From Verrucomicrobiota bacterium (GTDB lineage Bacteria > Verrucomicrobiota > Verrucomicrobiia > Opitutales > Opitutaceae), in contig JBAXLL010000001.1 in the NCBI GenBank assembly GCA_037134835.1, forward strand, positions 1-34,454: a stretch of DNA of 34,454 nt, in the 5' to 3' direction. Below are positions 1 to 34,454 of this stretch, piece by piece. Position 1 is the stretch's first letter, and the number at the start of each line of letters is the position of its first letter. The notes below the pieces were generated by a model. That model did not search any database and was not told the DNA's origin. It was given only the letters and a program-made list of their open reading frames with translations. The position numbers and the translations under genes are program-made.

Positions 1-1575
1 GAGCACACCGCGCGCATCGTCCCACAGCTCGCGTTCGATGAATCCGGCCACCCGCACCGCCGCCGTCCGGCACCGCCCGCGCATCGCCCCAAGGCACTCC
101 GCCGGGCTGGTCGCACCGCGGGCGAAGGCCGAAAGCATCAGCCCGTTCCATGCCGTGATGATCTTGTCATCAAGGTGAGGCCGCGGCCGGGCAGCGCGCA
201 CCAAGCGCAGCTTCTCCAGTCCGCCACCGAGCGACGCCACCGCAGCTAGTAGATCAAGACCGAGCTTCCGGGCCGTCTCGGCCAGTGGGCGGGTCTGCGC
301 GAGGATGTTTTTGCCGGTAAATTCGCCGTGGGGATCGAGCTGCTCCCGCACATTGCCCTCCGGCCTGACGCCAAAGTGTGCGCAGAACAAGCCCGCGTCG
401 GCACCGAGCACCGAGACTATTTCCGCGTGGGTCCACGTGTAGAACGCGCCCTCGGCCTTCGCTCTTGTCCCTACTCGACACCCCTCCCCTCCCTCTCCTG
501 GTTTGGCAGTCTCGGGCAACAGCGAATCTGCATCCTCCGCCGAGTAAAGCCCCCCCCCCGGCGCCAGTAGGTCGCGCAGGACGTAGTCAAAAATCCCGCG
601 CGCAACCCAGGCGAAGCGCTCGTCGCCCGTCGCGAGGTAGGCATCGAGGACGTTTACCGCGATCTGCGCCTGATCATAGAGCATTTTCTCGAAGTGTGGC
701 ACCAGCCACCCCGCATCGACTGCATAGCGGTGGAACCCGCCGCCCACATGATCATGGATGCCGCCGCCCGCCATTTTTTGCAACGTGACTGTCGCCATGC
801 GCCCCGCCTCCCGGCCCAGCCCCGAGTCCTCCCCCTGGAGCACTGTGACGCGGAAGAGAAAATTCAGGTTCGACGCACACGGAAATTTTGGCGCACCGCC
901 AAAGCCACCATGCTGTGTATCAAATGCCTCGTAAAAATGCTGGAAGCCATGCCCAAAGGCCTCCCCGCCCGCCTCGGCCAGACGCGAGTCCGCAGACCTG
1001 GCACCGGACGCAACATCGGCGAGCCGGGCCGCTCCCCTTCCGGCGCCAGGCCCTTTGTCTTCCACCTTCGGCTCCAGCTGCGCCCGTAGTACGCCGATCA
1101 CCCGGTCCGCCTCGGCAACGAGCTTCTCCCGCCCCTCCGCCCAGCCCTTGGCGATGGCCCGCAGAACCGATACCAAACCCGGCCGTCCTTGCCGGTCCTC
1201 CGGTGGAAAATAGGTGCCGCCATGAAAGGGCTTCAGTTCCGGGGTGAGCCACGCGCTCAGCGGCCAGCCGCCGTGACCGGTGAGCCCCTGCACGTAAGTC
1301 ATGTAGATCTTGTCCACATCGGGCCGTTCCTCGCGGTCCACCTTGACGGGGACAAAATGCGCGTTGAGCAGCGCGGCGATGTCCGCGTGCTCGAACGACT
1401 CGTGCGCCATGACGTGGCACCAGTGGCAGGTCGAATAGCCGATGCTCAGGAAGATGGGTTTCTGCTCCGCACGTGCCTTGGCAAACGCCGCCTCGCCCCA
1501 CGGCAGCCAGGCGACGGGATTGTCCGCGTGCTGGAGCAGGTAGGGGGATTTTTCGTGCGCGAGGGCGTTGGGCAT
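1..1575 (-). CDS. Thioredoxin-domain protein of the DUF255/YyaL type (thioredoxin fold plus alpha/alpha-barrel); 3' end lies beyond the left window edge
   Basis: The frame is open from the ATG at 1575-1573 to nt 1. It is absent from the ORF track because no stop falls in the window. My translation gives [61 protein letters not shown]..., then [57 protein letters not shown] and EGAFYTWT. These are hallmark motifs of this family. Confidence 0.85.
550..559 (-). repeat. Homopolymer tract inside the CDS: C10 on the + strand, G10 in the mRNA
   Basis: Read directly as ...gtaaagCCCCCCCCCCggcgcc.... It is decoded in frame as CCG GGG GGG GGG CTT (P-G-G-G-L). Confidence 0.9.
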
Positions 1576-1685: not shown

Positions 1686-3920
1686 GTGCCGCCGCAAATC
1701 TTGCCGTGCCGCTGGCAGGAATCATGCGTAGTCCGTTCACGCTTGACCAACGCACCCAAAACCCAATCCGCCGCGCCGCCGTTTGCACCCAATGTCCTCG
1801 CCGGGGCGATTTGCGCGCTGATGACGCTCGCTTACGCGAGCGGCTTCGCGACGCTGATTTTCGGCGGCACGCTCGCGCCGCACTCGGGGCAGGCGGTGCT
1901 GGCGGCCATCGTGAGCAGTTGCGTGACGATTTTGGTCTTGTCGTGGCGGAGCTCGTTTGGGTTCGCGATGGGCGGGCCGGACTCGAACCCGTCGGCCATC
2001 CTCGCGGTCACGGCCGGGGCCATCGCGGCCGAGATTGCGCGCGGAGCCACCGGCGCGGAGTCGGCGGACTTGCTGCCGACGGTGCTGATGTTTCTCTTCG
2101 TCGCCGCGTCGGGTTGCGGGCTGATCCTGTATTTTTTGGGTGCTCGCCATTGGGGCCGTTATGTGCGCTACATCCCGTATCCGGTGGTGGGTGGATTTCT
2201 GGTAGGCAGCGGTTTCCTGCTCGTGTCCGGCGCGTGGAAAATGCTCGTGGGCGCGTCGCCCGCGCACACGACCTGGGCGGAGATCGCGGCCGTGCCGCCG
2301 CTGGCGTGGGCGGCGGCGGCGGTCGTGGCGGCGGCGCTGCTCGTGCTGATGCGCGTCTCAAAACATTTTCTCGTGATTCCCGGCGTGATTTTTGGCGCGG
2401 CGGTTTTGTTTCACGTCGCGCTCCTCGCGACCGGCACCGGCCTTGCGGCGGCGCACATGTCCGGCCTGCTGCTCAGCCCGCTCAAGCCCGGCGCATGGAG
2501 CCAGCCGTTCAACCTGACGTGGGGCCATGTGCGCTGGGATTTGATTGTCGCACACGTCAACGATTTCGCCGCGATGACGATGGTCGTCGTTGTCACCATC
2601 CTGCTCAACGCCACCAGCCTCGACCACGCCACCGGGCTGGACGCCGACTTCGACCGCGAGCTCAAGGCGCTCGGGCTGGCGAATTTCCTGAGCGGTCTTC
2701 TCGGCGGGCTGGTCGCCGTGAACTCATTCAACCGCAGCCTGCTCAACCTCCGCGCCGGGGCCAACTCGCCGTGGGCGGGCCGCGTCTGCGTGGCCTTGGT
2801 GCTGCTGCTCACGCTCTTCGCGCCGGGCGCGGTGGCGCTGCTGCCCAAGCCGGTGCTCACCGGGCTGGTGTTTTACCTCGGCGTCTCGCTGCTGATGCAC
2901 TGGCTGTGGGACAGCCGGCACGAGATGCCGCGCGGCGACTACCTCACGATGCTGGCGATCCTCGCAATTGTGGTGGGCTTCGGCATCGTGCCGGGCGTGC
3001 TGCTCGGCGTGGTATTTTCGATGGTCAGCTTTGTGGTGACGTTCAGCCGCACCTCGGTCGTGAAACACCGTTTCAACGGCATGGTGCGCCACTCCAACGT
3101 CGAGCGCCTGCCCAAGGAAATGGACTGGCTGCGTCGCCACGGCGAGCATCTGCAGGGCGCAGTTTTCCAAGGCTACCTGTTCTTCGGCACCGCCACGGCC
3201 GTGCTCGACCAGTTGCGCGACGTGCCCGGCAAGGCCCGCGTGCTGCTCCTCGATTTCTGGCTCGTGCGCGGCATTGACGCCTCGTCCGTCATGGTCATGC
3301 GCAAGCTCCTCAAGCTCTGCGCCGACGCGAAAACCCAGGTGGTGTTCACCGGCGTTTCCCCGGCGTTGCGGGAAAAAATGCTCGCGAGCGGCCTCGACAT
3401 CGCACGCAGCCCCGCCCGAAGTTTTCCCGACCTCGACCGCGGCCTCGAATGGGCCGAGCAGACGGTCCTCAGCGAGGCCGTCGAGCAGATCACCCTCGGC
3501 CAGATGCTCGGGGGCCTCACGCCCACCGAGACCGAGACCGTCGCGCGCCACTTCGCAGAGCAAACGGCCCCCGAGGGCGAGACGTTCATCCGCAAAGGCG
3601 ACGCCGGCGACGCGCTCTTCATCGTGCTCAAGGGGCGCGTGAGCATCCAGCTCGTGATCAAAGGCTCCGACTTCCGCAAACGCCTCCGCACTTACGGCCC
3701 CGGCACAATCATCGGCGAGATGGGCTTCTACAGCGGCGCGCCGCGCAGCGCCGACATCTGCGCCGACACGTCCACCCATCTGCTGTGCATCACGCGCGAC
3801 AGTTTCGCGCAGATGGAAGCGGAAGACCCCGTGCTCGCAGGCAAGCTCCACCGCCTCGTGATCAACACGCTCGCCTCCCGCCTCCGCACCGCCAACGAGG
3901 CGCTGAACGATTTGCTGTAG
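1686..3920 (+). CDS. SulP/SLC26-family anion transporter fused to a STAS domain and a C-terminal cyclic-nucleotide-binding domain
   Basis: 744-aa ORF. The N-terminal part is multi-TM and hydrophobic (LAGAICALMTLAYASGFATLIFGG, NSFNRSLLNLRAGANS). A STAS-like segment follows (VLLLDFWLVRGIDASSVMVMRKLLKL...VVFTGVSPALREKM). The C-terminus carries a cNMP-binding signature (FIRKGDAGDALFIVLKGRVSIQ...GPGTIIGEMGFYSGAPRSADICA). The GTG start at 1686 is uncertain; TTG at 1743 is an in-frame alternative. Confidence 0.85.
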   Translation: MPPQILPCRWQESCVVRSRLTNAPKTQSAAPPFAPNVLAGAICALMTLAYASGFATLIFGGTLAPHSGQAVLAAIVSSCVTILVLSWRSSFGFAMGGPDSNPSAILAVTAGAIAAEIARGATGAESADLLPTVLMFLFVAASGCGLILYFLGARHWGRYVRYIPYPVVGGFLVGSGFLLVSGAWKMLVGASPAHTTWAEIAAVPPLAWAAAAVVAAALLVLMRVSKHFLVIPGVIFGAAVLFHVALLATGTGLAAAHMSGLLLSPLKPGAWSQPFNLTWGHVRWDLIVAHVNDFAAMTMVVVVTILLNATSLDHATGLDADFDRELKALGLANFLSGLLGGLVAVNSFNRSLLNLRAGANSPWAGRVCVALVLLLTLFAPGAVALLPKPVLTGLVFYLGVSLLMHWLWDSRHEMPRGDYLTMLAILAIVVGFGIVPGVLLGVVFSMVSFVVTFSRTSVVKHRFNGMVRHSNVERLPKEMDWLRRHGEHLQGAVFQGYLFFGTATAVLDQLRDVPGKARVLLLDFWLVRGIDASSVMVMRKLLKLCADAKTQVVFTGVSPALREKMLASGLDIARSPARSFPDLDRGLEWAEQTVLSEAVEQITLGQMLGGLTPTETETVARHFAEQTAPEGETFIRKGDAGDALFIVLKGRVSIQLVIKGSDFRKRLRTYGPGTIIGEMGFYSGAPRSADICADTSTHLLCITRDSFAQMEAEDPVLAGKLHRLVINTLASRLRTANEALNDLL

Positions 3921-3940
3921 GCCCGCGGCAAACCGTGCCG

Positions 3941-3962
3941 AGGCGGGGTTCGGCGACCCCGC
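3941..3962 (+). terminator. Possible terminator-like hairpin after the transporter gene
   Basis: GGCGGGGT-tcggcg-ACCCCGCC forms a perfect 8-bp GC-rich stem 21 nt after the stop. No clear U-tract follows (ctacaatgattt). Confidence 0.3.
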
Positions 3963-4035
3963 CCTACAATGATTTCGCCCGTCCCAGCATTCGTCTTGCC
4001 CACCGCGCGCCGGGCTGGTTTGCTGGCCGGTTCCG

Positions 4036-5922
4036 ATGCTCACCATCGCCGACGTTTCCAAGTCTTACGGCACCCGCGAACTCTTCGCGGATGTGTCGCT
4101 GTTCATCGCCCGCACCGACCGCTATGGCCTCGTCGGGCCCAATGGCGCGGGCAAATCCACGCTCTTTAATCTCATCCTGGGCGAAGAGGCACCTGACGAG
4201 GGCACCATCGAATGGGAACGCGGCGCCGACTTCGGCTTCCTGCCCCAGGAGAGCGCACCCGTCGGCGACGAGACGATCATCCAGATCGCCACCAGCGGGA
4301 AAAAACTGCTCCCGGAAACCGACGACGACTACGACATTGATTACACGCTGGAGCCGCGCGCGAAGAAGATCCTCGCCGGCCTCGGCTTCCGCGAAGGCGA
4401 CAGCGACAAGCTCGCCAAGACTTTCTCGGGCGGCTGGGTGATGCGCGCCCACCTGGCCCGGCTGTTGGTGGCCGAGCCCGCCCTGCTGCTCCTCGACGAG
4501 CCGACCAACCATCTCGACCTTGAGGCACTGCTGTGGTTTCAAGACTACCTCACGCGCTACCCCGGCGGCCTCGTGGTCATTTCGCACGATCGCGCCTTTC
4601 TCAACGTCCTCTGCACCGGCATCCTCGAGCTGCGGAGCTGCCGCCTCAACCGCTACACCGGCAACTACGACGACTATCTGGCCGAGAAGGAGGCGCGGAA
4701 GGATCAGCAGGCTGCCGCATTCAAGAACCAGCAGCGCGAAATCGCCCATCTCCAGAAATTTGTGGACCGATTCGGAGCCAAAGCCTCGATGGCTTCGCGC
4801 GCCAAATCGAAGGAAAAGCAGATCGAGCGCCTGGAGGCCGTCGCCGTCGAGGAACCGCAGGATGAGCTGAAGCGGATCCACTTTAAGTTCCCCCAGCCGC
4901 CGCGCTCCGGGCTCAAGGTCATTGAGCTTGAGCATGTGCAGCAGTCCTACGGGGACCATGTCGTCTACCGCGACCTGAACTTCAGTTGCGAGCGCGGCCA
5001 GCGCATCGTGCTCGTCGGCCCCAATGGCGCGGGCAAGTCCACGCTGCTCAAAATCCTCGGCGATGTCATCCCGATCCAAGGCGGCGTGCGCGAGCTCGGC
5101 AGCAACGTGATCACCGGCTACTTTGCCCAAAACCGCCTCGACAACCTGCACGCCGACGCGAGTGTGTTTGAAAACGTGATGGAGCTGCGGACCAATGAAA
5201 ACCAGCTCACCGAACAGCAGGGCCGGGCGATTCTCGGTGCCTTTCTTTTTCGCAAGGATGACGTTCATAAAAAGGTCTCCGTCCTTTCCGGTGGCGAAAA
5301 GTCCCGCCTCGCTCTCGCCCGGCTCCTCGTGAAGCCGCCCAACCTGCTCCTGATGGACGAGCCGACGACCCATCTGGACATCGCCTCGATTGACGCGCTC
5401 GTCGGTGCGCTGAAAAGCTACGAGGGCACGCTCATCTTCATCAGCCACGACGTGCATTTTATCCGGCAGCTCGCGCAAAACGTCCTCCACGTTCACTCCG
5501 GCCGGCTCACCCCCTACGCCGGCAACTACGACTACTACCTCGACAAGTCGAAGGCCTCCAACGAGCGCGCCGCCCTCACGGCCGGTTTCACCGACGCGCG
5601 GCCGAAGCAGAATCAGGCCGCCGCCCACTCCGGTTCCAACCGGACCCCGATGGCCGCGCCCCCCGCAGCCACCAAGTCCAAGGCCAATCCTGCCGAGATC
5701 AAAAAGCTCCGAGCCGAAGTCGGCCATCTCGAGGAAAACGTCTCCAAGCTCGAAGCGAAGCAAAACGAGCTTACGGCCGCCCTCGAAGCGCCCGAGACCT
5801 ACACGCAACCCGGCAAGGCCCAGCACCTGAACCGCGAGCTCAGTGTGATCGTGGACCAGCTCGCCGCCGCAACCACCGCATGGGAGCAGGCCGCCGGCCG
5901 CCTGGCCGCGCTCAACCCGTAA
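4036..5922 (+). CDS. ABC-F family ATPase: two ABC cassettes, no TM domain, C-terminal coiled coil (YheS/Uup-like)
   Basis: Two Walker A motifs (GPNGAGKST twice) and two ABC signatures (FSGGWVMRAHLARLL, LSGGEKSRLALARLL). The inter-domain linker is charged (YLAEKEARKDQQAAAFKNQQREIAHLQKFVDRFGAKAS). The C-terminal helix is charged (AEIKKLRAEVGHLEENVSKLEAKQNELTAALE). Confidence 0.9.
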   Translation: MLTIADVSKSYGTRELFADVSLFIARTDRYGLVGPNGAGKSTLFNLILGEEAPDEGTIEWERGADFGFLPQESAPVGDETIIQIATSGKKLLPETDDDYDIDYTLEPRAKKILAGLGFREGDSDKLAKTFSGGWVMRAHLARLLVAEPALLLLDEPTNHLDLEALLWFQDYLTRYPGGLVVISHDRAFLNVLCTGILELRSCRLNRYTGNYDDYLAEKEARKDQQAAAFKNQQREIAHLQKFVDRFGAKASMASRAKSKEKQIERLEAVAVEEPQDELKRIHFKFPQPPRSGLKVIELEHVQQSYGDHVVYRDLNFSCERGQRIVLVGPNGAGKSTLLKILGDVIPIQGGVRELGSNVITGYFAQNRLDNLHADASVFENVMELRTNENQLTEQQGRAILGAFLFRKDDVHKKVSVLSGGEKSRLALARLLVKPPNLLLMDEPTTHLDIASIDALVGALKSYEGTLIFISHDVHFIRQLAQNVLHVHSGRLTPYAGNYDYYLDKSKASNERAALTAGFTDARPKQNQAAAHSGSNRTPMAAPPAATKSKANPAEIKKLRAEVGHLEENVSKLEAKQNELTAALEAPETYTQPGKAQHLNRELSVIVDQLAAATTAWEQAAGRLAALNP

Positions 5923-6033
5923 GCCAACCGCACCAGCGCCAGGACACGGGCTACCCTCGCTGCCGCCCTTCCGGCACCCTCCCCCGCGCCGGCTTCCGGC
6001 CAGCCGAGGTGATCTTCCATCCCGGCTGACAAA

Positions 6034-6064
6034 ACGCCTGCCATGCACAGGGCACGGCAGGCGT
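6034..6064 (-). terminator. Hairpin terminator downstream of rplQ, in the convergent gap with the ABC-F gene
   Basis: ACGCCTGCC...GGCAGGCGT is a perfect 9-bp stem with an inner TGC/GCA extension, 25 nt after the rplQ stop. On the minus strand it is followed by TTTGT, a short U-tract. Confidence 0.5.
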
Positions 6065-25500: not shown

Positions 25501-25576
25501 ACGAATTGAGAGAGGGAATTGGTGGAAAAGAGGTTGAACGTGAACACCCGCCAACCGCACAGCAAGAACTTTTTGG

Positions 25577-25616
25577 AAAAAAAACGCGGTGCGCCGGCAA
25601 AGTGCCGCCGCACCGC
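25577..25616 (-). terminator. Strong rho-independent terminator closing the pseudopilin cassette, upstream of rpsL
   Basis: The + strand reads aaaaaaaac-GCGGTGCGCCGGC-aaagt-GCCGCCGCACCGC. This is a 13-bp stem with one mismatch and a 5-nt loop. On the minus strand it is followed directly by G-TTTTTTTT. It lies 68 nt after the stop of the 1549-aa gene. Confidence 0.8.
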
Positions 25617-25683
25617 ATGGGAACGAGCCACCGCCACCAGCCCGGGAGAGAAAATTCCGGCCGGATCGGTTCAGTCAAATCCC

Positions 25684-28600
25684 TTAGATTTCGTCCTGGG
25701 TGAGCCAGCGGAACGACACGATACGGAAGCGGCGGCCATAGACCTGATTGACCGGCTCGATGTGGCTCTCCGGAATACTCTGCTCACCGCTGGGATGCAC
25801 GGAAGCAGGATCGCGAGGATCAATGTAGTCGGGGAAACGCTGGACCACGGCCTCAAGCCAAGCCCGCGCCTTGATGTCACGCACCTGATCCACCTTGTCA
25901 GGGTTGGCGTTCAACGGATCAACCGCGTCACCATAGGCACGGATCACAAAGGTATCGGAACGGGCGGACAAGTTTGGCCCGATGGCCTGCAAAATGTCGG
26001 CCTGGGTCAGCCAGCCAGGGATCCCGGTACTGCGCGACAACGCCACACCCTCGCCGGGCGCGGTGACCGTCGTCACCGAGAGCGAGATGGTCGCGTTCGG
26101 AAGCACATCGGCAAATGGCGTAGAATCGGTCTTGCTGGTAGGGATGCCAGACTGGGCTCCATCGCCGCCCATCCTCTCATTGGGTCGCGAAGTAATTGCG
26201 ATCGAGTGCGATCCCGTGTACACATCTTTAAAAATTTGGTTGGGGTCGGTTGTGATATTGATACCCGCCCGGTCAATCGCCATTTGCAATGCCCCTGCCA
26301 CCTCGACGGTGTTTTTCTCATTGCCCAGGTAACCCTTTTCCATCTCAAAATTCCCTTCCAAGCCTTTCATCACGAGATCCTTGATGGCTGAAGTTGTGCC
26401 CGTGATGCCACCGCGATTGATGAAGCTGGCCAAGGAGGGAAATGGGCCGCGCAGCCGGATTTCCTGCACCAGCGTCGTGGCGAGCGCGACAATCTGCGCA
26501 TCGGTGAGCCGACGATAGCCTGCATAGCTGGAAAATGTGTGGGTGGTTTCCTTTTCACCCGCGGTGTAGCGGGATTGCCAGAGGGTGCGGGGGTAGGAAG
26601 TGCCCTTGCCTGTGACCCGGGTCGTGGCATCCTGAATATTGGTCTGGCTATTCATGCCGCTAGCACTGCGGTTGCGCAGGCCGCCCAATACCGCACTCCA
26701 CGCCTCAATGGAGGTGGAGTTGATGTTGAAGGCTCCGTCCACCATCAGGTAGCGGGCCGGCACATATTCCTTGGGAATGTGCAGGCTCGAATTAAAGGCG
26801 TCGGGGGCCGAAGCATTGGCCGGAATGTCACTCGGCCGGTCGTAAAGCGCAAGCTGCTCGTCGGTCGGTGTAACTCCGGCACCATACACCAGCCGTGGAT
26901 TGGCCGAGCGGCCCGTGCCGCCCTTCGCCTGCTTCAGCTGCGGAATACCGGCAAAATAAAACCGGTCCCACAGGGCGGTGTTGAGCAGGTAGGACATGTC
27001 AAAATAGTTGGTGCCCGTAAGACCGTTGGAGGTCGTCTCAGTGATCGTCGCCGCATTGGCGTACCAGATATTGGGCCGGATCTGTTTCGTCATGGTGCGG
27101 GTGACCAAGGGGTGAAACCAAGAATTGCCCACCGCATTGCCTGGCTGGTGCCCGACAAAGGGATATTGGTCGTCAGCCGTAAGGTTGGCATGCTGCAAAA
27201 ACCCAATGGAGAGGACGGGCATGTCCAATTCCGAACTGCGGCGCGGCAGATCAAAGAGCATCGTGCTGTAATTGATCGAACCGCTCAGACTTGAGTTGAA
27301 ATTGGTGTTGTCCGAAGTCGTACTTGTGTATTGGGAGTTGGGTCCCCAGGCCGGGGGCCAATTGTTGAGCATCCGGTCAAGCCCACGGCCGACAGCCGCC
27401 AAGGAGCCAGTCGCCCCGGGGCCTCCGGTGGCATCCAAATACCCGCTTTTATAAGGCGGGACCGGCCCCAAGCCAAGCACCGGGGTGGAAACCCACGGCA
27501 GCGGATGATATTGGGCCTGCAAATTGTAATCAGCAAATGTCCGATAGGCCCCGGTGGCCGCATCCACCGTTTCTGGCACGCCAATCCCCTGATTGACCTT
27601 GTAGTAATCATTAAATATTCTTCCCAAATAGCTGATTGTTATTGAGAAAGGTAGCAATGGCGCAGGCAACTGCAGTTCGGACATGAAACCGCCAATATTA
27701 CCGCCAGCCACTGAGCCCACGCCTTCTCTGATCTTTGTGGTCGTTCCCCGCGGAGCGAAGACTGCATCCGCCCACTCGGCGTTGATGATGGAGGAATAGA
27801 CCTGATGGCCTTTATCTATTTTGCGGTCATTATAATCCCGCAGATAGATACTCGATGCGGCGCCTTTGTTCAAACTGTTCGTAACCGTGACCTCGGTCAT
27901 TTCCGTTGAAACGGTGAAGACCAATTTCTCCCTATCCACTCCATCGACGATGCCAGCTCCGATGGAACTGAGGATGAAATGACTCGTGATTATATTGGGA
28001 GCACCAATGGTGGCGGTAATCAAACGCAGGTATTTTTTATGGGTCGTGTCGGCAAAAGTTTGTGCGGGCGTACTAGGGTCAAGCTGAAACCCGAGGACGC
28101 CGCCAGCGGGGATGGTGATCGGTTGGCCGCCGTTGGTCTCCCGGTCGGCATAATAGATGAACCCCGTCAGCCCGGACGGCTTCTCCGGCTCAATCTGGGG
28201 CAAGGGGTCTAGCCCATTGATATAGGTTCGTTTGGACATCCAACTGTTGGACACCGTGTTGCCTTGCGAATACTGGCCATTGAGAAAAATCGGCATACTG
28301 ACCCGAGCGTTGCCGCCACGAGGATCGGTGAACGAGGCGTCGATATTGACCCGATTAGGATTCCACACCGATCGGATACCCGGCCCCGGCTCTCTAAGCT
28401 TGGGATAACCCGGATTGACCCAAACAAACTCCAAGCCCTTGGGAAAAGTCAGGGCGGCATTGTAGGGATTGCCCACCGCGAAAGCCAACCTGATGTCATA
28501 GCTATAGGTCATCGTCCACGTTTTGATGGAAGGCAATGGATTTTCCAGCGTCGAATTCGGATCGGGCTCCATCTTGACCTCTGGTGGGGCAAAAATGGCC

Positions 28601-30333
28601 GAGCTATAAAACCTTGCCTGCACCAGTTGCGGGGCGACGTGAGCCAAAATGGGAACGCTGTTGGACGCCTGCGGCTCCTGATCCATCCCAATGGAGGGGA
28701 TCTGAGAGGTGCCAATCTGGGCAATCATGCTGGCGTTCGGCGTCGGCCTAAGCTGTTTCGAGATGTCATACCAGCTTTTCAAAATATCCCAAGAAGGCAA
28801 GGCCAGTCCCGAGCCGGAGATCATCAGATTATAGGGCGAAACATCCTTGGCATCTAGCGAGAGGGCGGGATCTCGGAGCGCAGGATCAATCCACAGGCTT
28901 CGAGCCAGCCCGTTGGGCAAAGAGTTCTGCACCCGAAAGGAAGGCAGGATGCCGAGGCTTCTGAGCCGCTCATTATAAAACGGGCTAAAATTGGGCACAG
29001 CCACCTGGTCGGCGTTGAAGGTGGGACGCATGCTCTCTGTCCCATCGTCTAACAGGGAAGTAAGGTCAATTTTCAAGCCCCCGCGCAGCGTGTCGGTGAG
29101 CAGTCCGTAAGAAGAAACCGTGAGGTTGTGAAAATTGCTCCGAATGATGGCGTCGGCTGTCGTGTAAGTGTTGGGCCGGGGATCCAGAAACCGCAGTTGC
29201 TGGAGCGACTGGACATTGGGGATGAGCGTGGTGGTGAAGGTGGTGCTGGCGGGAGCAGTCGAGGAGGTGTTAACGGGATAAGAAATGCTCGTCGCGGTAT
29301 TCCCACCCCCGGAAATGGAGTCGGTAAATCCCGGCACCAGCTCAATGCCATTCCGCAACGCGACCTGAATCCGCAACCTGGCGCGGGCGCTCGAAACACT
29401 ATTCGTCTCCGCCATGGCGTTGAATCCATCATTGGGATCCCGGAGATTGGCCTTGGCCTTCACCCCTTCATCCAACACCGCATAGCCAAACCGGCCGCTG
29501 AGCTTGCCGGTAGCACTGTTGCCAAGTCCAGGAATCATGGCTGAACTGACGGTGATGGACACCAACGGGACCGCCACATAGGTATCTGGCTGGCCCGGCA
29601 AGGTACTGGCCGTGCTCCAACTCGCTGTGCCTGGCCCCACGAGTATGACACCCTGCTTGCCATTGATGGTCACATTGGGACTGAGTGCGGTCGAAGTCGT
29701 GGTCACACCTTGAATCGTGCTGTCCGGGGTGTATGGCATCGTTGAAGCGGATGTCGCCGATATAATTCGGCCTGCACCAAAGGTGGAGGTGGTAAAGTTG
29801 ACCCCCTCATTGCCGCTCACCAACCAAGTGAGAAGAATGGGAGTGGGAGATTTGATGTAGCTGTCATCTGCCACATCTAAATTGCCCAAAACACCCGTCC
29901 AGAAACGGCTGCCCGCCTGGAGGTGCTGGGGCAACCCTGCCGTGGTCTCGTTTTTACCTTCTTTGACATAACTGTTCGTGACCGTATGCGCGAATGTATT
30001 CCGACCCTTCCCGGGTAGGGGAATGTTCAGGCCATTGGCCAAGAGGGTGGAATCGGCAAATTCAGCCTGGATGGTAATCCTCTGATCGTGACCGGCAAAT
30101 TTTTCCAACTGACCGATGGCAGTCTGCAGGCCCACGAGCGCGTTTTGCTGCGCCTGAATCTGCGCCGTGCCGCTATCGGCAATCTGGCCGCCAGTGCGGA
30201 TCAGAAACGTGAGCGAGAGCAGCAGAACGACGAGGAAGGCCGTCAACGTCAGGCTGACGATCAAGACGAAGCCACGCGATTTTACAGGCCGGCGGCCGGC
30301 AGGAGCCGAGAGAGGGGGATAGCGGTTGGTCAT
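25684..30333 (-). CDS. Giant (1549-aa) GspK-like minor pseudopilin / putative fibre-tip protein (candidate 'Verru_Chthon cassette protein A')
   Basis: The N-terminus ...RRPVKSRGFVLIVSLTLTAFLVVLLLSL is pilin-like with no Glu at +5, as in GspK. The last ~350 aa carry GspK/helix-hairpin-helix-like motifs: FNINSTSIEAWSAVLGGL, RRLTDAQIVALATTLVQEIRLRGPFPSLASFINRG and LSARSDTFVIRAYGDAV...ARAWLEAVVQR. The ~1150 aa between them are Ser/Thr/Asn/Gly/Pro-rich with no domain I recognise. It is the last gene of the cassette. Confidence 0.8.
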   Translation of the reverse strand: MTNRYPPLSAPAGRRPVKSRGFVLIVSLTLTAFLVVLLLSLTFLIRTGGQIADSGTAQIQAQQNALVGLQTAIGQLEKFAGHDQRITIQAEFADSTLLANGLNIPLPGKGRNTFAHTVTNSYVKEGKNETTAGLPQHLQAGSRFWTGVLGNLDVADDSYIKSPTPILLTWLVSGNEGVNFTTSTFGAGRIISATSASTMPYTPDSTIQGVTTTSTALSPNVTINGKQGVILVGPGTASWSTASTLPGQPDTYVAVPLVSITVSSAMIPGLGNSATGKLSGRFGYAVLDEGVKAKANLRDPNDGFNAMAETNSVSSARARLRIQVALRNGIELVPGFTDSISGGGNTATSISYPVNTSSTAPASTTFTTTLIPNVQSLQQLRFLDPRPNTYTTADAIIRSNFHNLTVSSYGLLTDTLRGGLKIDLTSLLDDGTESMRPTFNADQVAVPNFSPFYNERLRSLGILPSFRVQNSLPNGLARSLWIDPALRDPALSLDAKDVSPYNLMISGSGLALPSWDILKSWYDISKQLRPTPNASMIAQIGTSQIPSIGMDQEPQASNSVPILAHVAPQLVQARFYSSAIFAPPEVKMEPDPNSTLENPLPSIKTWTMTYSYDIRLAFAVGNPYNAALTFPKGLEFVWVNPGYPKLREPGPGIRSVWNPNRVNIDASFTDPRGGNARVSMPIFLNGQYSQGNTVSNSWMSKRTYINGLDPLPQIEPEKPSGLTGFIYYADRETNGGQPITIPAGGVLGFQLDPSTPAQTFADTTHKKYLRLITATIGAPNIITSHFILSSIGAGIVDGVDREKLVFTVSTEMTEVTVTNSLNKGAASSIYLRDYNDRKIDKGHQVYSSIINAEWADAVFAPRGTTTKIREGVGSVAGGNIGGFMSELQLPAPLLPFSITISYLGRIFNDYYKVNQGIGVPETVDAATGAYRTFADYNLQAQYHPLPWVSTPVLGLGPVPPYKSGYLDATGGPGATGSLAAVGRGLDRMLNNWPPAWGPNSQYTSTTSDNTNFNSSLSGSINYSTMLFDLPRRSSELDMPVLSIGFLQHANLTADDQYPFVGHQPGNAVGNSWFHPLVTRTMTKQIRPNIWYANAATITETTSNGLTGTNYFDMSYLLNTALWDRFYFAGIPQLKQAKGGTGRSANPRLVYGAGVTPTDEQLALYDRPSDIPANASAPDAFNSSLHIPKEYVPARYLMVDGAFNINSTSIEAWSAVLGGLRNRSASGMNSQTNIQDATTRVTGKGTSYPRTLWQSRYTAGEKETTHTFSSYAGYRRLTDAQIVALATTLVQEIRLRGPFPSLASFINRGGITGTTSAIKDLVMKGLEGNFEMEKGYLGNEKNTVEVAGALQMAIDRAGINITTDPNQIFKDVYTGSHSIAITSRPNERMGGDGAQSGIPTSKTDSTPFADVLPNATISLSVTTVTAPGEGVALSRSTGIPGWLTQADILQAIGPNLSARSDTFVIRAYGDAVDPLNANPDKVDQVRDIKARAWLEAVVQRFPDYIDPRDPASVHPSGEQSIPESHIEPVNQVYGRRFRIVSFRWLTQDEI

Positions 30334-30421: not shown

Positions 30422-31858
30422 TCATGGCTGGACACCGGGCAGGGCGATGCGCCGGGTGAAGATATGCGAATGTTCCAAAGCAATCCGCCACCAGAAAGCC
30501 TTGGTGGTCTCCGTGTTCTCCCTTTGTGGAGCAGTGACCCCAATCGCAGGATTTTCCAAAGCGTCAATCAGGCGAGCTCCCTCTGCATCCAGAATCCGGA
30601 GAAAAACATCCACGTAAACGGGTGTACAAGGCCGGTCGGGCTCCTTCCCGGTATTGCCCGTGGCACGGTACGCGAATCCGTAAGTCATGTTCTTGACTGA
30701 CGCATATGGCCCGGTCCATCCAATGCCAGACACAGGTTGGATGCCTGGATATGGGATCCCTAGGTCATCCCGACGGGTGAAACCGTCCTCGGTACTGATC
30801 GCAAATCCAGTATTGGGAGTTGAAGTCGGATTAAGGGAGGAGGGGAAAAGCAACACATCCATCGGGTGGCCGCCGTTTGCGGGATCAGTCGTCCGCCCCC
30901 AGACCAGCACGCCAAAATCTATCACGTTTTCCGCAATGACCTGGTTGATGTTAGGCTGGCGAAGGGTGCCCGCGTCATTCAGGATTCGGCCGCCCTTGTC
31001 TGGGTCGTTGTAGATGCTCGCCAGACCGGTATGAACAGCGCCGGTTGAAAGGGTGCTGGTCGCAAAGACCTGAAATAAATCATACCCGGCGCCATAAGTG
31101 GACCGATTCCGCTGCAACGCGTCTTTGCTGTCAGCCGAGGGGCGCACCGTCGAGCGCATGAGATAATAACGATATGAGTCGTTGCTCTCACCATTTTTCA
31201 TGCGCACAATCTGGTAGCCGACCGCATGAGGCACCGATGCATTGATGGGATCAGCATCCTTTTTTTGCGATTCGATGGTAAAAAACCGCAGCCACACCCC
31301 GGCCTGCCCGAAGCGAAAGCGCGACAAATCCACCACATTGGTCTTCTTATCGAGGCTTGGTCTGGCAAGCGTTGGATCCGGGACAATCAGATCGCTTGAC
31401 GTGGCCGAGTGTGGCGGTTCGTAGGGGGGCAAAACCAACGACGAGCCCTCAACTTCCTTGTTCACCCCGGGATCCCCTTGGCCCGACGGCTTGATGGTGC
31501 CGTTTCCCTTCGATTTCCAAAAAGTGTAATCCAGCAAGCGAGCAGTGCCATTCGGACTTTCGGTCAACCCTTGGGTGTCGCCCTTGCCCTCTTGATCCGG
31601 CTGCACCGTAGCCGCCAGCCAGACTCGTCCATCCCGCCGTATCACCGCCGAACCCAGATCGCGATCCAAGTTTTCCAGCACGAGAGAGGCTTGGTTTTCA
31701 GTGGTGATGACGCCCACCGCCCGGTTCACCTGCTTCAGACTGTTCGTGGTGAAGCCGAGAAAAAAACTCACCATCAACAACGTAATGGCCAGCGCCACCA
31801 TCAGTTCGACCAACGTGAACGCACGCAGGGCAGGGAAATTGGAGGTTCGTCGAGTCAT
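30422..31858 (-). CDS. Large (478-aa) GspJ-position pseudopilin with a prepilin-type N-terminal cleavage/methylation motif
   Basis: MTRRTSNFPALRA|FTLVELMVALAITLLMVSFFLG has F+1 and E+5, with Ala rather than Gly at -1. Its ATG overlaps the upstream stop as ATGA (31855-31858). Confidence 0.8.
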   Translation of the reverse strand: MTRRTSNFPALRAFTLVELMVALAITLLMVSFFLGFTTNSLKQVNRAVGVITTENQASLVLENLDRDLGSAVIRRDGRVWLAATVQPDQEGKGDTQGLTESPNGTARLLDYTFWKSKGNGTIKPSGQGDPGVNKEVEGSSLVLPPYEPPHSATSSDLIVPDPTLARPSLDKKTNVVDLSRFRFGQAGVWLRFFTIESQKKDADPINASVPHAVGYQIVRMKNGESNDSYRYYLMRSTVRPSADSKDALQRNRSTYGAGYDLFQVFATSTLSTGAVHTGLASIYNDPDKGGRILNDAGTLRQPNINQVIAENVIDFGVLVWGRTTDPANGGHPMDVLLFPSSLNPTSTPNTGFAISTEDGFTRRDDLGIPYPGIQPVSGIGWTGPYASVKNMTYGFAYRATGNTGKEPDRPCTPVYVDVFLRILDAEGARLIDALENPAIGVTAPQRENTETTKAFWWRIALEHSHIFTRRIALPGVQP

Positions 31859-32511
31859 CGGGCCAAGGCGTAATTATAAATAAATGCACTCCGCTGGCTT
31901 CGCTCCACCGGAAGACCGGTGTTCGCATCATGCGCCGGCCATGAAATCCTTACGACGAACTGGACCGAAGCGGCCTCACGCAGCTTGATGGGGTCGGTTT
32001 CTCCGCTAGGGGAGTCTCGCGAGGCACTGTCATCAAAGCCCCGCACCAGCATGACCTCAAAGTATTTTTGCTTGTCCGATACAGGATCGTTTCTGGCACC
32101 CCAGATCGGATCGATATAAGTCCCGATCTTATCTCCCAATTTACTGACATAAAGTAATTTAACGTCGGTGTTTTTGATATTCGTATCGTCGGGGGATTGT
32201 GCCTTGCCGAACAAGAGTCCGGTTGCACCCACCGAGGGGGGATCGCCTTCGGCTGCGCCCTGCACCACGCGGTAGCCAAAGCTGTCCAACTTTGTGTTAA
32301 TGGTAGATACGATGCGCTTGGCAAGTGCATGATCCAAGACGGCGGTTTCCGCCTGGGTGCTATTGCTCATCATCACGATGGCCATGATCACCGCGACCGT
32401 AAAAATGCCAAGGGAGACCAGCACCTCGATGATGGTAAAACCACATGGAACGGGACGCCGGGGCAGGTGTGAAGCAGGCTTAGCGGGTAGTAGGGAAGTC
32501 ATACACATCAT
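31855..32511 (-). CDS. GspI-position pseudopilin (218 aa) with a canonical prepilin motif
   Basis: ...RRPVPCG|FTIIEVLVSLGIFTVAVIMAIVMM. Three candidate ATGs exist (32511, 32508, 32502). All overlap the upstream gene end (stop at 32480-32482). Confidence 0.8.
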   Translation of the reverse strand: MMCMTSLLPAKPASHLPRRPVPCGFTIIEVLVSLGIFTVAVIMAIVMMSNSTQAETAVLDHALAKRIVSTINTKLDSFGYRVVQGAAEGDPPSVGATGLLFGKAQSPDDTNIKNTDVKLLYVSKLGDKIGTYIDPIWGARNDPVSDKQKYFEVMLVRGFDDSASRDSPSGETDPIKLREAASVQFVVRISWPAHDANTGLPVERSQRSAFIYNYALAR

Positions 32512-33325
32512 TCAAAAGGACGGGGTTGCCATACTGCGTAATCCTCACGCCACGAACATTCTGCGGGTTGGTGAAGATCATGGGATCGCCGGAATTGGAT
32601 GCTGTGTCGCGCATGGCTTCGGAGAGCACGATCAGATCAGGCGTGTCACCCGAATTCACGTTGCCGAATGAATTAAACTCGATATAAAAATAGCGCCCAA
32701 CCTTCTCGTCCACGGTCATTTGCGTTTCGGTGGGGGCCACCGCCGCTCCGCTGGAGGGTTTGCTGGTGGTGGTATTGCTCATCGAGTTGAACTGGGAGAG
32801 CCGGGTCTTACCCGCCGGCCAGCTTCCCTCCCATACGCGCGGGATCTTGGTGGGCGGCACGACATAAATCCCTTGGGGAAAGACGAGCGGGCTACCCACG
32901 GTTTTCCATCGAGGGGAAGCGGGGCTCAATGGATCCAGTACGACCACCTGCATTTGCCGCAGATAAAGCGCCTTCTCGCTGTCGGTGCCAGCGTTGGCGA
33001 AAACGATCAGCCGTGAGGCACCAACACTGCTCGTGTTCAAGTTGACCGTACTGACCCGCGCCTGCAAACGAGCCAGATTTACCAGTGCGGCTACCTCGGC
33101 TTGGACGACTTTGAGGTTGGTTCCTGGATGGTTCATGCGGGCATAGCTGAACAGGCCCATTCCGATCACCATGATGCTCATGACCACCAGCAGCTCAACG
33201 ACGGTATAAGCCCCGTGTGCAGCTTGGACCCGCGCCCCACGCCCGACCCTCCCGATCACGCCGGAGCCCATCGCGGAGAACCGATCACGCGAGAAAAACG
33301 AGTGCGCTGAAACAAGAGGAATCAT
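32480..33325 (-). CDS. GspH-position pseudopilin (~281 aa) with a non-canonical prepilin motif
   Basis: ...RVQAAHGA|YTVVELLVVMSIMVIGMGLFS places E at +5 only if cleavage follows Ala. I chose the ATG at 33325, which overlaps the upstream stop as TAATG. The track ORF starts 21 nt upstream (33346). Met at 33271 is another option. Confidence 0.75.
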   Translation of the reverse strand: MIPLVSAHSFFSRDRFSAMGSGVIGRVGRGARVQAAHGAYTVVELLVVMSIMVIGMGLFSYARMNHPGTNLKVVQAEVAALVNLARLQARVSTVNLNTSSVGASRLIVFANAGTDSEKALYLRQMQVVVLDPLSPASPRWKTVGSPLVFPQGIYVVPPTKIPRVWEGSWPAGKTRLSQFNSMSNTTTSKPSSGAAVAPTETQMTVDEKVGRYFYIEFNSFGNVNSGDTPDLIVLSEAMRDTASNSGDPMIFTNPQNVRGVRITQYGNPVLLNDVYDFPTTR

Positions 33326-34029
33326 TATTTCGGGTCCAGATCCCAATTTGTCACCGCTGCTTTGGACTCAACGACCGTGCCATGGGGGTTGCCGGCGCCG
33401 GCCGAATAAAAAAGTACCCCGGCGCGCAGTCCTTTCACTGGGATATCACCGTTCGCCATCGGATCATAGGTGCCTCCAAATTGATCCGCAACTGCTGGAT
33501 AAGTATTGCTATCCACCGTGTTAATAAATCCGTCTAAATTTTTATCCAAGAGCACAGCAATTACTGTGTTTCCGAAGGCATCCATGAGCAACGGTTTCTT
33601 CTCGTCATCTCTGGAGATTTCATTGCCCGCAAACGTGTAGAAAGACAGCAGCCGACTGTTACCGTAGAGGTCAGAGGCTTTTGCCTTTGCTTGGCGCAAA
33701 TCGCTTGAATTTCCATCTGCATGCCGCCCTGTCAGGGCAACCGCAAATCGGTCCGTCGAGATGACATTGGGTGGGGTGGTATCTTTCGTGGAACTACCCC
33801 AAAGAATCGGATAAGATCCATATTCTGCCCGAAACATTTCCATCGCCGTGCCCCATTGGCTAAACTGGGCCTTCGTACGGGTCCGATACGCTTTATTTTG
33901 CAGCGCGCTGGCAATAGGTATTGTGATGGACATCAAGACCGTGATACACATGACCACCGTCAAGAGTTCGATGATGGTGAAACCTCGGCGGAAGCTCCAT
34001 GGATGAGGATTATTGGATGGCAGGTTCAT
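33325..34029 (-). CDS. Second GspG-like pseudopilin (~234 aa) with an EF-hand-like calcium loop
   Basis: MNLPSNNPHPWSFRRG|FTIIELLTVVMCITVLMSI is a canonical motif. It also has FRAEYGSYP, LMDAFGNTVIAVLLDKNLDGFINTVD and a C-terminal FYSAGAGN. An alternative ATG at 34062 would add 11 aa. Confidence 0.8.
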   Translation of the reverse strand: MNLPSNNPHPWSFRRGFTIIELLTVVMCITVLMSITIPIASALQNKAYRTRTKAQFSQWGTAMEMFRAEYGSYPILWGSSTKDTTPPNVISTDRFAVALTGRHADGNSSDLRQAKAKASDLYGNSRLLSFYTFAGNEISRDDEKKPLLMDAFGNTVIAVLLDKNLDGFINTVDSNTYPAVADQFGGTYDPMANGDIPVKGLRAGVLFYSAGAGNPHGTVVESKAAVTNWDLDPK

Positions 34030-34454
34030 AAATATTATCGGCGTTTTCACCGCTACTGGCATCTTCGCTCAAGAAGCCTTTCTCATTGTACACCGTCTTG
34101 GACACCCCGTCTATTCCGTCACTCCAAAGGAGGTAGGAAGGGTTGAGCCAGCTCTGTTCCGGCACCTTGTAAACATAGTGATAGGGATTTCCCCACGAAT
34201 CCAGCAATTCGTTCGTACCCATGGTAGATTCAGTCAGTGCCTCCGGATGGCTCACATCAAAATGGCTCAGGTTGGCCAGCAGGGTTTTGCCAGGCGGATC
34301 CACCTTGTCACGCTTCGGACCCATCTTGCCGGTCAACGCATCAAAGAGCTCTTTTGCCTTCTCCGTCTGGGGGTAGTCCCCATATTGCAATTTGTACAGG
34401 GTCAAAGCCTGGGCGATGCCAGCGAGCTGACTGCGTGTCCGCGCCACCAGAGCC
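34010..34454 (-). CDS. GspG-type major pseudopilin; 5' end (N-terminal helix) lies beyond the right window edge
   Basis: The open frame continues to the window edge (...ALVARTRSQLAGIAQALTLYKLQYGDYPQTEKA...). The C-terminal LLDSWGNPYHYVYKVP...YLLWSDGIDG resembles the GspG signature DPWGNPY...S.G.DG. Confidence 0.8.
   Translation of the reverse strand, partial: ALVARTRSQLAGIAQALTLYKLQYGDYPQTEKAKELFDALTGKMGPKRDKVDPPGKTLLANLSHFDVSHPEALTESTMGTNELLDSWGNPYHYVYKVPEQSWLNPSYLLWSDGIDGVSKTVYNEKGFLSEDASSGENADNIYEPAIQ

Follow-up and report, generated by a model that had tools for sequence, protein, structure and literature searches.

A giant pilin-like protein as a candidate GspK-class tip subunit encoded in a pseudopilin cassette of Verrucomicrobiota

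The pseudopilin cassette and its last gene

The stretch of DNA analysed here (34,454 nucleotides of contig JBAXLL010000001.1, from a Verrucomicrobiota bacterium of the Opitutaceae; hereafter, the window) carries a cassette of pseudopilin-like genes, the last of which is a complete open reading frame (ORF) with an ATG start at 25684..30333(-), encoding a protein of 1549 amino acids (aa) plus stop, which we call the giant. On balance, we consider the giant to be probably a cap (tip) minor pseudopilin of the GspK/PilK class, expanded about five-fold, in a fibre of the type II secretion (T2S)-like or type IV-filament kind. This reading is based on a leader that lacks glutamate at mature position 5 (Glu+5), a homologous first helix (alpha1), the K position after the I and J genes, and a weakly GspK-like C-terminus with a conserved terminal strand.

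The genes of the cassette lie on one strand and are transcribed in the order G, G', H, I, J and giant (Table 1). Two GspG-like genes stand in succession, and the orthologue of the one cut by the window end is complete, with 195 aa, in the loci of two relatives (L001 and L087). The true start of the H-position gene is probably an internal Met, and the TIGR01707 match of the GspI-like protein, which covers profile positions 1-95 of 101, stays below the curated cutoff. The J identity is assigned by position only; neither the I- nor the J-position protein found anything among PDB sequences. All four complete upstream pseudopilins (245, 288, 218, and 478 aa) matched N_methyl at E 0.0004-0.02, under the Pfam gathering score of 21.2 bits in every case, and all four carry Glu+5 where the giant has Val. 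The J-position protein is more than twice as long as GspJ of E. coli K-12 (195 aa), with no family or PDB sequence match past its N-terminal helix. In another locus, a 449-aa Pfam N_methyl protein is encoded 127 bp upstream of the giant, and in L030 a 449-aa ORF with GFTLVELL stands at the same distance.

Between the giant stop and rpsL there is a strong intrinsic terminator, so that the giant closes its operon and the cassette is probably not co-transcribed with the str operon; beyond rpsL follow the str, S10, spc, and alpha ribosomal operons. The order scpB-pheA-G-G'-H-I-J-giant-rpsL is identical in relatives whose giants are 76% and 45% identical (L001 and L087). The cassette stands directly upstream of the rpsL-rpsG-fusA-S10 superoperon (window 6089-34454), with adjacency to rpsL kept down to 39-45% giant identity, which is an unusually stable, housekeeping-like place for pilus genes.

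Table 1. Features of the giant and of its cassette, with nucleotide positions counted in the window
Feature	Residues of giant	Position	Strand	Basis
Class-III (prepilin-type) leader, ends Arg-Gly	1-21	30271..30333	-	sequence; predicted cleavage G21/F22
Hydrophobic helix alpha1 and amphipathic continuation	22-95	30049..30270	-	hhalign to GspK; mature +5 = Val
Family-conserved N-terminal region	96-430	29044..30048	-	conservation; beta-rich
Variable middle	431-1024	27262..29043	-	BLAST coverage gaps; column conservation 0.09-0.27
Conserved pre-C-terminal region	1025-1181	26791..27261	-	family conservation
C-terminal region with weak co-linear GspK-like signals	1182-1549	25687..26790	-	hhalign; AlphaFold secondary structure
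GAFNINSTS motif, nearly invariant in family	1200-1208	26710..26736	-	family conservation
Helix-hairpin-helix-like segment	1276-1307	26413..26508	-	hhalign; model helices
Three C-terminal beta-strands, all highly conserved		25699..25962	-	family conservation; AlphaFold model
GspG-like major pseudopilin, N-terminus cut by window end		34010..34454	-	Pfam T2SSG, E = 2.5e-8
Second GspG-like pseudopilin, 245 aa, leader RG|FTIIELL		33325..34062	-	TIGR01710 gspG, E = 9e-10, N-terminal 60 residues only
H-position pseudopilin, 288 aa, leader HG|AYTVVELL		32480..33346	-	weak: TIGR02596 (cassette D) E 0.004, GspH E 0.08
GspI-like minor pseudopilin, 218 aa, leader CG|FTIIEVL		31855..32511	-	TIGR01707 gspI, E = 8e-9
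J-position pseudopilin, 478 aa, leader RA|FTLVELM, Glu+5		30422..31858	-	N-terminal Pfam N_methyl/NCBIfam pilin matches only
Intrinsic terminator, 15-bp stem then U8, between giant stop and rpsL		25576..25618	-	-29.7 kcal/mol, z = -4.7, 0/200 shuffles as stable

Regions of the giant and their relation to GspK

As a whole protein, the giant eludes the usual family searches. Nothing in Pfam or NCBIfam was matched at E <= 0.1, and the PDB sequence set yielded nothing relevant for the single sequence or for a profile of 54 relatives, in agreement with the initial annotation, which had called the long middle unassignable. The same annotation had described this part as rich in Ser, Thr, Asn, Gly, and Pro, with no recognisable Cys-rich or repeat motif; indeed, these residues make up 41% of positions 60-1200, there is not a single Cys in 1549 residues, and self-BLAST detected no internal repeat. 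The strings that it had quoted as reminiscent of GspK are all present where it placed them, namely FNINSTSIEAWSAVLGGL (residues 1202-1219), LTDAQIVALATTLVQEIRLRGPFPSLASFINRG (1276-1308), and SARSDTFVIRAYG...ARAWLEAVVQR (1456-1499). No PilY1/PilC domain was found in the giant by Pfam, and no propeller was among the Foldseek matches.

The N-terminus is the part most clearly related to GspK. The leader reads ...KSRG|FVLIVSLTL (residues 20-31 being RG|FVLIVSLTL), so that cleavage after G21 would leave Val26, and not Glu, at mature position 5. The giant did not match N_methyl PF07963 or TIGR02532 (motif GFxxxE), as expected because Glu+5 is missing. Among 80 related loci the N-termini are of the types RGFALLITITLL, QGFTLIITISLL, and SGFALVIAMLL, likewise without Glu+5. 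For the comparison with GspK by hhalign, an alignment of 77 sequences gathered with E. coli K-12 GspK was set against an alignment of 195 sequences of the giant family. Residues 18-81 of the giant fell on GspK 4-67 with a probability of 95% and E 2-4e-8, and the reversed-segment control reached P = 0.0046 only. Moreover, four relatives matched the first 63-75 positions of the NCBIfam GspK model NF037980 (E 6e-6 to 1e-3), at 18.7-26 bits against a cutoff of 130 and through the N-terminus only, and the AlphaFold model of a 1174-aa relative (P0020) shows a single long helix at residues 8-69. The GspK-like pilin N-terminus without Glu+5 proposed in the initial annotation is thereby upheld, and the giant is very likely a pilin-like protein with an N-terminus of the GspK type.

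The C-terminal region gave fainter signals, arranged in a consistent order. Its elements are short strands, FNINS, helices, a long disordered loop (1366-1420), and three long beta-strands, a succession compatible with the GspK globular part (a pilin sheet that has an alpha-domain of HhH/SAM-like subdomains inserted and is closed by C-terminal strands), the helices including the helix-hairpin-helix (HhH)-like LTDxQI..LA..IV.EVRxRGPFxSLAxFVNR. By hhalign, residues 1170-1549 align co-linearly with GspK 73/97-332 over 195-214 columns (P = 0.04), which pairs FNINS with FNLN and SARSDTF.IR with the S.YF strand, and sets the HhH-like helices on the alpha-domain and the last strands of the one on the last strands of the other. 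When the protein was tiled with 51-residue windows, eight of the 15 tiles across residues 1135-1535 (starts 1135-1485) reached P 0.0037-0.033, whereas P stayed at 0.13 or above in all 43 windows of residues 82-1185. Two of these low-P tiles, 1460-1510 and 1485-1535, fall out of order on GspK 137-158, which is probably due to chance.

Within this region, GAFNINSTS aligns to the FNLN or INLN motif of GspK at P = 0.0055 and 0.01. The HhH-like segment is covered by window 1265-1315 on GspK 218-267 (P = 0.036) and by tiles 1260-1310 on GspK 228-264 and 1285-1335 on GspK 242-269 (P = 0.03 and 0.033); it was modelled with helices at residues 1278-1295 and 1301-1305, and Pfam HHH_6 matched weakly in 4/40 family members, with a best E of 0.08. 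The three strands are RSDTFVIRAYG (1458-1468), ARAWLEAVVQR (1489-1499), and the terminal GRRFRIVSFRWL (1533-1544), and tile 1435-1485 fell on GspK 251-301 at P = 0.0037. A Pfam scan of the 40 diverse family members returned sub-threshold matches only, to HHH_6, PilX_N, and T2SSK. We therefore take the GspK signal in the C-terminal region as real in its localisation and weak in its strength. With respect to the GspK-sized C-terminal module of the initial annotation, the three motif pairings were recovered in order (P = 0.004-0.04), while Pfam, NCBIfam, and PDB matches, and GspK among the Foldseek matches of the C-terminal model, were not. Homology of this part to the globular part of GspK is suggested weakly by these alignments, and we lean slightly towards it.

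Along the giant, conservation is uneven, with peaks at residues 1-100, 251-300, 1101-1150, 1251-1300, and 1451-1549 and a minimum at about 450-1000. Residues 96-430 contain the motifs WTGVWGN, WLVSGNE, GRxxWxVxDEGVKAxxNL, and GGLKxDLT, and the equivalent region of the P0020 model has a predicted local distance difference test score (pLDDT) mostly of 80-97. No GspK signal was found here, all hhalign windows giving P >= 0.13. The possibility that GRxxWxVxDEGVKAxxNL (280-297) corresponds to the FNLN strand of GspK, which would set the insertion inside the alpha-domain, was rejected, as hhalign gave P = 0.7-0.9 at this place.

The variable middle (431-1024) differs in length among relatives and is beta-rich, at low confidence, in the P0020 model, where its only structural matches are non-significant ones of jelly-roll/CBM-like type. 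It may well form the likeliest exposed or contact surface, and is thus a candidate for the binding part. An NPY triplet at residues 622-624 of this middle was invariant in the first 54 relatives; with 55 sequences aligned, N and P are still invariant and Y nearly so. The following region (1025-1181) is marked by LFDxPR..LSLGxLQHA, GNSxAxP, and DxSYLLNxALWDxYFFS, and in the AlphaFold model of giant residues 1000-1549 the ten-residue-block mean pLDDT at about 1030-1180 is 55-89.

Two structure models were searched with Foldseek. The full-length model of P0020 (pLDDT 74.7, predicted template modelling score [pTM] 0.84) begins with one long helix, followed by a beta-rich region modelled with confidence, a middle that is also beta-rich but of low confidence, and C-terminal helices with three long strands. 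Against 350,542 PDB chains it had no significant match; GspK (3ci0_K) ranked second (E = 0.78, 242 columns), XcpX (5vtm_X) third (E = 1.0, 282 columns), and another GspK-family chain was at rank 28. The CBM6, CBM35, GH11, and lectin-like folds returned by the same search were all non-significant with aligned regions unspecified, and a lectin assignment was rejected. Against viral structures, the model found nothing below E = 0.6. The second model, of giant residues 1000-1549, reached a pLDDT of 72 and a pTM of 0.76.

A large family, its paralogues, and a partner gene

The initial annotation had regarded a five-fold expanded tip pseudopilin as an unusual architecture, which does not hold. When a profile was run exhaustively against 1.84 billion cluster representatives (clusters at 50% identity), 6388 proteins were returned at E <= 1e-3, of which 3763 also reached E <= 1e-30, and a scan of one genome per species gave at least 548 loci. 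A second word-indexed homologue search, made with the alignment, had added one fragment only. Context was counted in 80 of them, nearly all titled Verrucomicrobiota (one Kiritimatiellia and one "Bacterium isolate"), and including Opitutaceae, Akkermansiaceae, Verrucomicrobiales, Cerasicoccus, Coraliomargarita, and Ruficoccus; several genomes contribute two or three loci each. UniRef names two relatives "Verru_Chthon cassette protein A", and a JGI label on the family reads "Tfp pilus assembly protein Pi...". A literature search on the cassette names (Verru_Chthon), TIGR0259x/TIGR02600, and Verrucomicrobia pseudopilins found no paper on the family, which is already large and partly auto-named, with no fitting Pfam or NCBIfam model.

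The most constant neighbour in these loci is a partner ORF of about 240 aa, conserved immediately downstream of the giant in 75/80, whose N-terminus is hydrophobic and Sec-signal-like in three seed copies. Neither Pfam nor NCBIfam gave it a name, nor did NCBIfam name the neighbours in L088. Copies lie at 13522-14247 in L004, 13534-14220 in L005, 13816-14574 in L006, and 144-914 and 9342-10070 in L088, and directly downstream of the giants in L007-L086; in L088, whose giant is 39% identical, one of the two copies stands between the giant and rpsL. The partner is absent from the window (1-34454), where a six-frame search gave a best E of 0.2, so that a fused or hidden copy was rejected, and also from the close relatives L001 and L087.

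Among seven distant paralogue loci, which are anecdotal and carry no statistics, six adjoin genes for large secreted proteins with CBM9, Laminin_G_3, F5/8-type C, malectin, PKD, or PA14 domains, together with GH20, amylase, sulfatase, a cellulase, or polysaccharide deacetylase and regulators of the AraC, LacI, or GntR types. A very large gene (995-2909 aa) on the same strand was observed upstream of or near distant paralogues in L004 (6932-9940), L006 (3789-9731), L090 (1-8691), L091 (4546-7533), and L089 (193-3669); its Pfam domains are CBM9, PKD, PA14, Laminin_G_3, F5/8-type C, and malectin, with none on record for L006 and L091. Genes for sugar metabolism and for regulators stand around these loci.

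Elsewhere in the window, a SulP-STAS transporter fused to a cyclic-nucleotide-binding domain (1686-3920(+)) and an ABC-F type ATPase (4036-5922(+)) are encoded; long antisense ORFs over these genes (2724-4061 and 3964-6048) have no family match and look spurious.

Candidate function, alternative readings, and known systems

If the giant is a cap pseudopilin, its working may be pictured as follows. Prepilin peptidase would remove the 21-residue leader after Gly21, and an alpha1 without Glu+5 would fit the first subunit of a fibre, which lacks an overlying subunit with which to form a salt bridge. This helix would bundle with those of two proteins encoded just upstream, the GspI-like one of 218 aa and the J-position one of 478 aa, into an initiation complex of giant, I, and J, on which the GspG-like major subunit would polymerise. 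The pilin-type sheet would be completed in cis, in the way described for GspK, by the conserved C-terminal strands, of which GRRFRIVSFRWL is the last, and about 1100 residues (the beta-rich 96-430 and the variable 431-1024) would stand atop the fibre as its exposed end. This placement is drawn by analogy with GspK/PilY1, CpaL (PMC13533445), and ComZ (PMC6561018). A location at the tip is accordingly proposed for the giant, and binding is put forward as a candidate function.

Several observations weigh against this assignment. At E <= 0.1 the giant matched none of Pfam T2SSK (PF03934), T2SSK_1st (PF21687), and NCBIfam GspK NF037980; among the 40 family members scanned, one touched T2SSK (E = 0.034), and GspK was absent from the family-profile matches among PDB sequences. 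The reversed controls of the C-terminal comparison gave P = 0.19, 0.22, and 0.039, the last of these from the reversed final 115 residues. In the P0020 search, the matches to 3ci0_K and 5vtm_X stand at E 0.8-1.0 with a root-mean-square deviation of about 20 A and an unspecified aligned region, and the model of residues 1000-1549 retrieved no GspK among its 43 matches at E <= 10, the top one being VirB8 (E = 2). The latter miss is possibly explained by the segment, which is without alpha1 and has a 130-residue disordered loop. As regards the structural similarity of the last 350 aa to GspK, on which the initial annotation had staked its proposal, the C-terminal model, which finds no GspK, counts against the proposal, and that of P0020, which ranks GspK and XcpX second and third at E about 1, stands in between. 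In terms of genomic context, about 74/80 loci are without a pilin-motif gene within 8 kb (a canonical one occurs in about 6/80), and no genes for GspD, GspE, or GspF (secretin, ATPase, and platform) were found in the window or the flanks examined.

Some of these points could also describe a protein with a pilin leader but with a globular part of other descent than that of GspK, belonging to a separate Verrucomicrobiota family that may loosely be called "Verru_Chthon cassette A-like". The leader and helix would then serve only as an anchor or export signal, and the protein would form, with its partner of about 240 aa, a surface or periplasmic machine and not a fibre cap. It would suit such a protein that alpha1 holds the only significant GspK similarity, that the C-terminal similarity is marginal and missed by Foldseek with the C-terminal model, that a partner with a Sec signal, and seldom a pilin-motif gene, accompanies the giant, and that UniRef has named two members after cassette protein A. 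It would leave unaccounted for the K position in a G-H-I-J-K cassette, present in the window and its orthologues and kept down to 45% identity, the family-wide lack of Glu+5 (the GspK/PilK signature), the co-linearity of the C-terminal hhalign signals and their confinement to that region, and the rank of GspK and XcpX behind a single other Foldseek match. We judge both this separate origin and the partnered machine that it implies to be unlikely.

Less probable still is that the giant acts as a cargo- or substrate-specific adaptor and not as a generic adhesin. Here one pseudopilus would take the paralogues as exchangeable tips, each matched to the adjoining large secreted glycan-binding or glycan-degrading protein, and the copy in the window would serve as the "housekeeping" tip, kept beside the core pseudopilins. 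The presence of several paralogues per genome, the variable middle region, and the glycan enzymes, sugar regulators, and large secreted proteins beside six of the seven distant loci would accord with this improbable proposal. Against it, the seven loci are an anecdotal sample without statistics, neighbours of this kind and the conserved partner gene are both absent around the window copy, and nothing indicates one assembly machine common to the paralogues.

Finally, a long ORF produced by an assembly or frameshift artefact joining several genes, which the initial annotation had named as a possible undoing of its proposal and for which the unusual length is the sole basis, can be rejected with near certainty, since a 76%-identical homologue (P0002), which independent samples yielded on 24 contigs, is co-linear with residues 1-1549, and end-to-end alignment extends to more than 150 relatives, 1046-1700 aa in length (almost all of the best 150 cluster representatives match the profile in this way). 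Nine more relatives, at 35-56% identity, are co-linear over essentially the whole length, with P0005 beginning at query residue 322. The gene is real and intact.

Tip subunits set what a type IV filament or T2S pseudopilus touches, and they start the assembly of the fibre; to our knowledge, few large tip components are known (PilY1/PilC, MshQ, ComZ, and CpaL). Verrucomicrobiota are known for polysaccharide foraging. In this context, if the members of the family cap fibres, they would surpass all known in-cis tip pilins in size and would offer a handle on how these bacteria bind to glycans or secrete onto them. The window copy is useful in this respect, being one of a small number that have recognisable GspG-, GspH-, and GspI-like genes beside them, which gives the whole family a context. 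A broader and rather doubtful idea is that Verrucomicrobiota hold a large repertoire of exchangeable giant tips, several to a genome, each with a variable middle, usually with the secreted partner of about 240 aa, and often beside genes for very large surface proteins that bind or degrade glycans, which would programme one common pseudopilus or pilus for each substrate or cargo; the window copy would then be the ancestral or "housekeeping" tip beside the str operon, with the partner dispensed with. The interest of the family would rise if its paralogues prove to be exchangeable, substrate-specific tips.

Among known proteins, GspK/XcpX (3CI0 chain K and 5VTM chain X) are the closest to the giant. 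They have in common a leader ending in Gly, the lack of Glu+5, a homologous alpha1, the place of last pseudopilin gene after GspI- and J-type genes, and, in a weak co-linear manner, FNxN, the HhH-like helices, and the C-terminal strands. However, GspK has about 320-330 aa, whereas the giant has 1549, about 1100 of which separate alpha1 from the GspK-like part; unlike GspK, it fails every curated family model, has no secretin, ATPase, or platform gene nearby, and yields no GspK in Foldseek when its C-terminal model is used alone.

Verru_Chthon cassette protein A (TIGR02600) is, like the giant, a giant Verrucomicrobiota protein associated with prepilin-type genes. Three relatives matched the first 59-62 positions of this 1296-position model, at 23.6-28.2 bits against a cutoff of 332.3, and the giant itself did not match at E <= 0.1. 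Neighbouring genes matched the model of cassette protein C at E 0.012 and 0.0026 and that of cassette protein D at E 0.004 and 0.011, all well short of the cutoffs, with no match to B among the window neighbours; furthermore, the gene order differs from that of the cassette, the giant being last here. Since it fails both the curated GspK models and TIGR02600, the giant is filed as a member of neither.

ComZ of Thermus thermophilus, a GspK-like pilin argued to be a tip pilin because it would fit nowhere else in the fibre, carries an inserted domain of about 380 residues, a beta-solenoid placed between the last two strands (PMC6561018). In the giant, by comparison, the insert is of about 1100 residues and apparently follows alpha1, with no solenoid detected and no sequence similarity to ComZ found. 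Other large fibre-tip proteins are CpaL/TadG of Tad pili, and PilC/PilY1 and MshQ, which act with pilins of the PilK type; in these systems the sheet is completed in cis (as in GspK and CpaL) or in trans (as in PilY1 and MshQ): PilY1 provides the last strand of the PilK sheet in trans, and in T2S systems without PilC/PilY1 the PilK homologue GspK itself carries the terminal, sheet-closing strand (PMC13533445). CpaL and similar large pilin-like tip proteins tolerate big middle insertions, the middle of CpaL being largely dispensable for assembly (PMC13533445). PilY1 and MshQ are not pilins and CpaL has about 600 aa, whereas the giant has a pilin-type N-terminus and no PilY1/PilC Pfam match. In brief, the giant behaves most like a GspK with an adhesin-sized insertion in cis, and would be a variant of this class and not a rarity.

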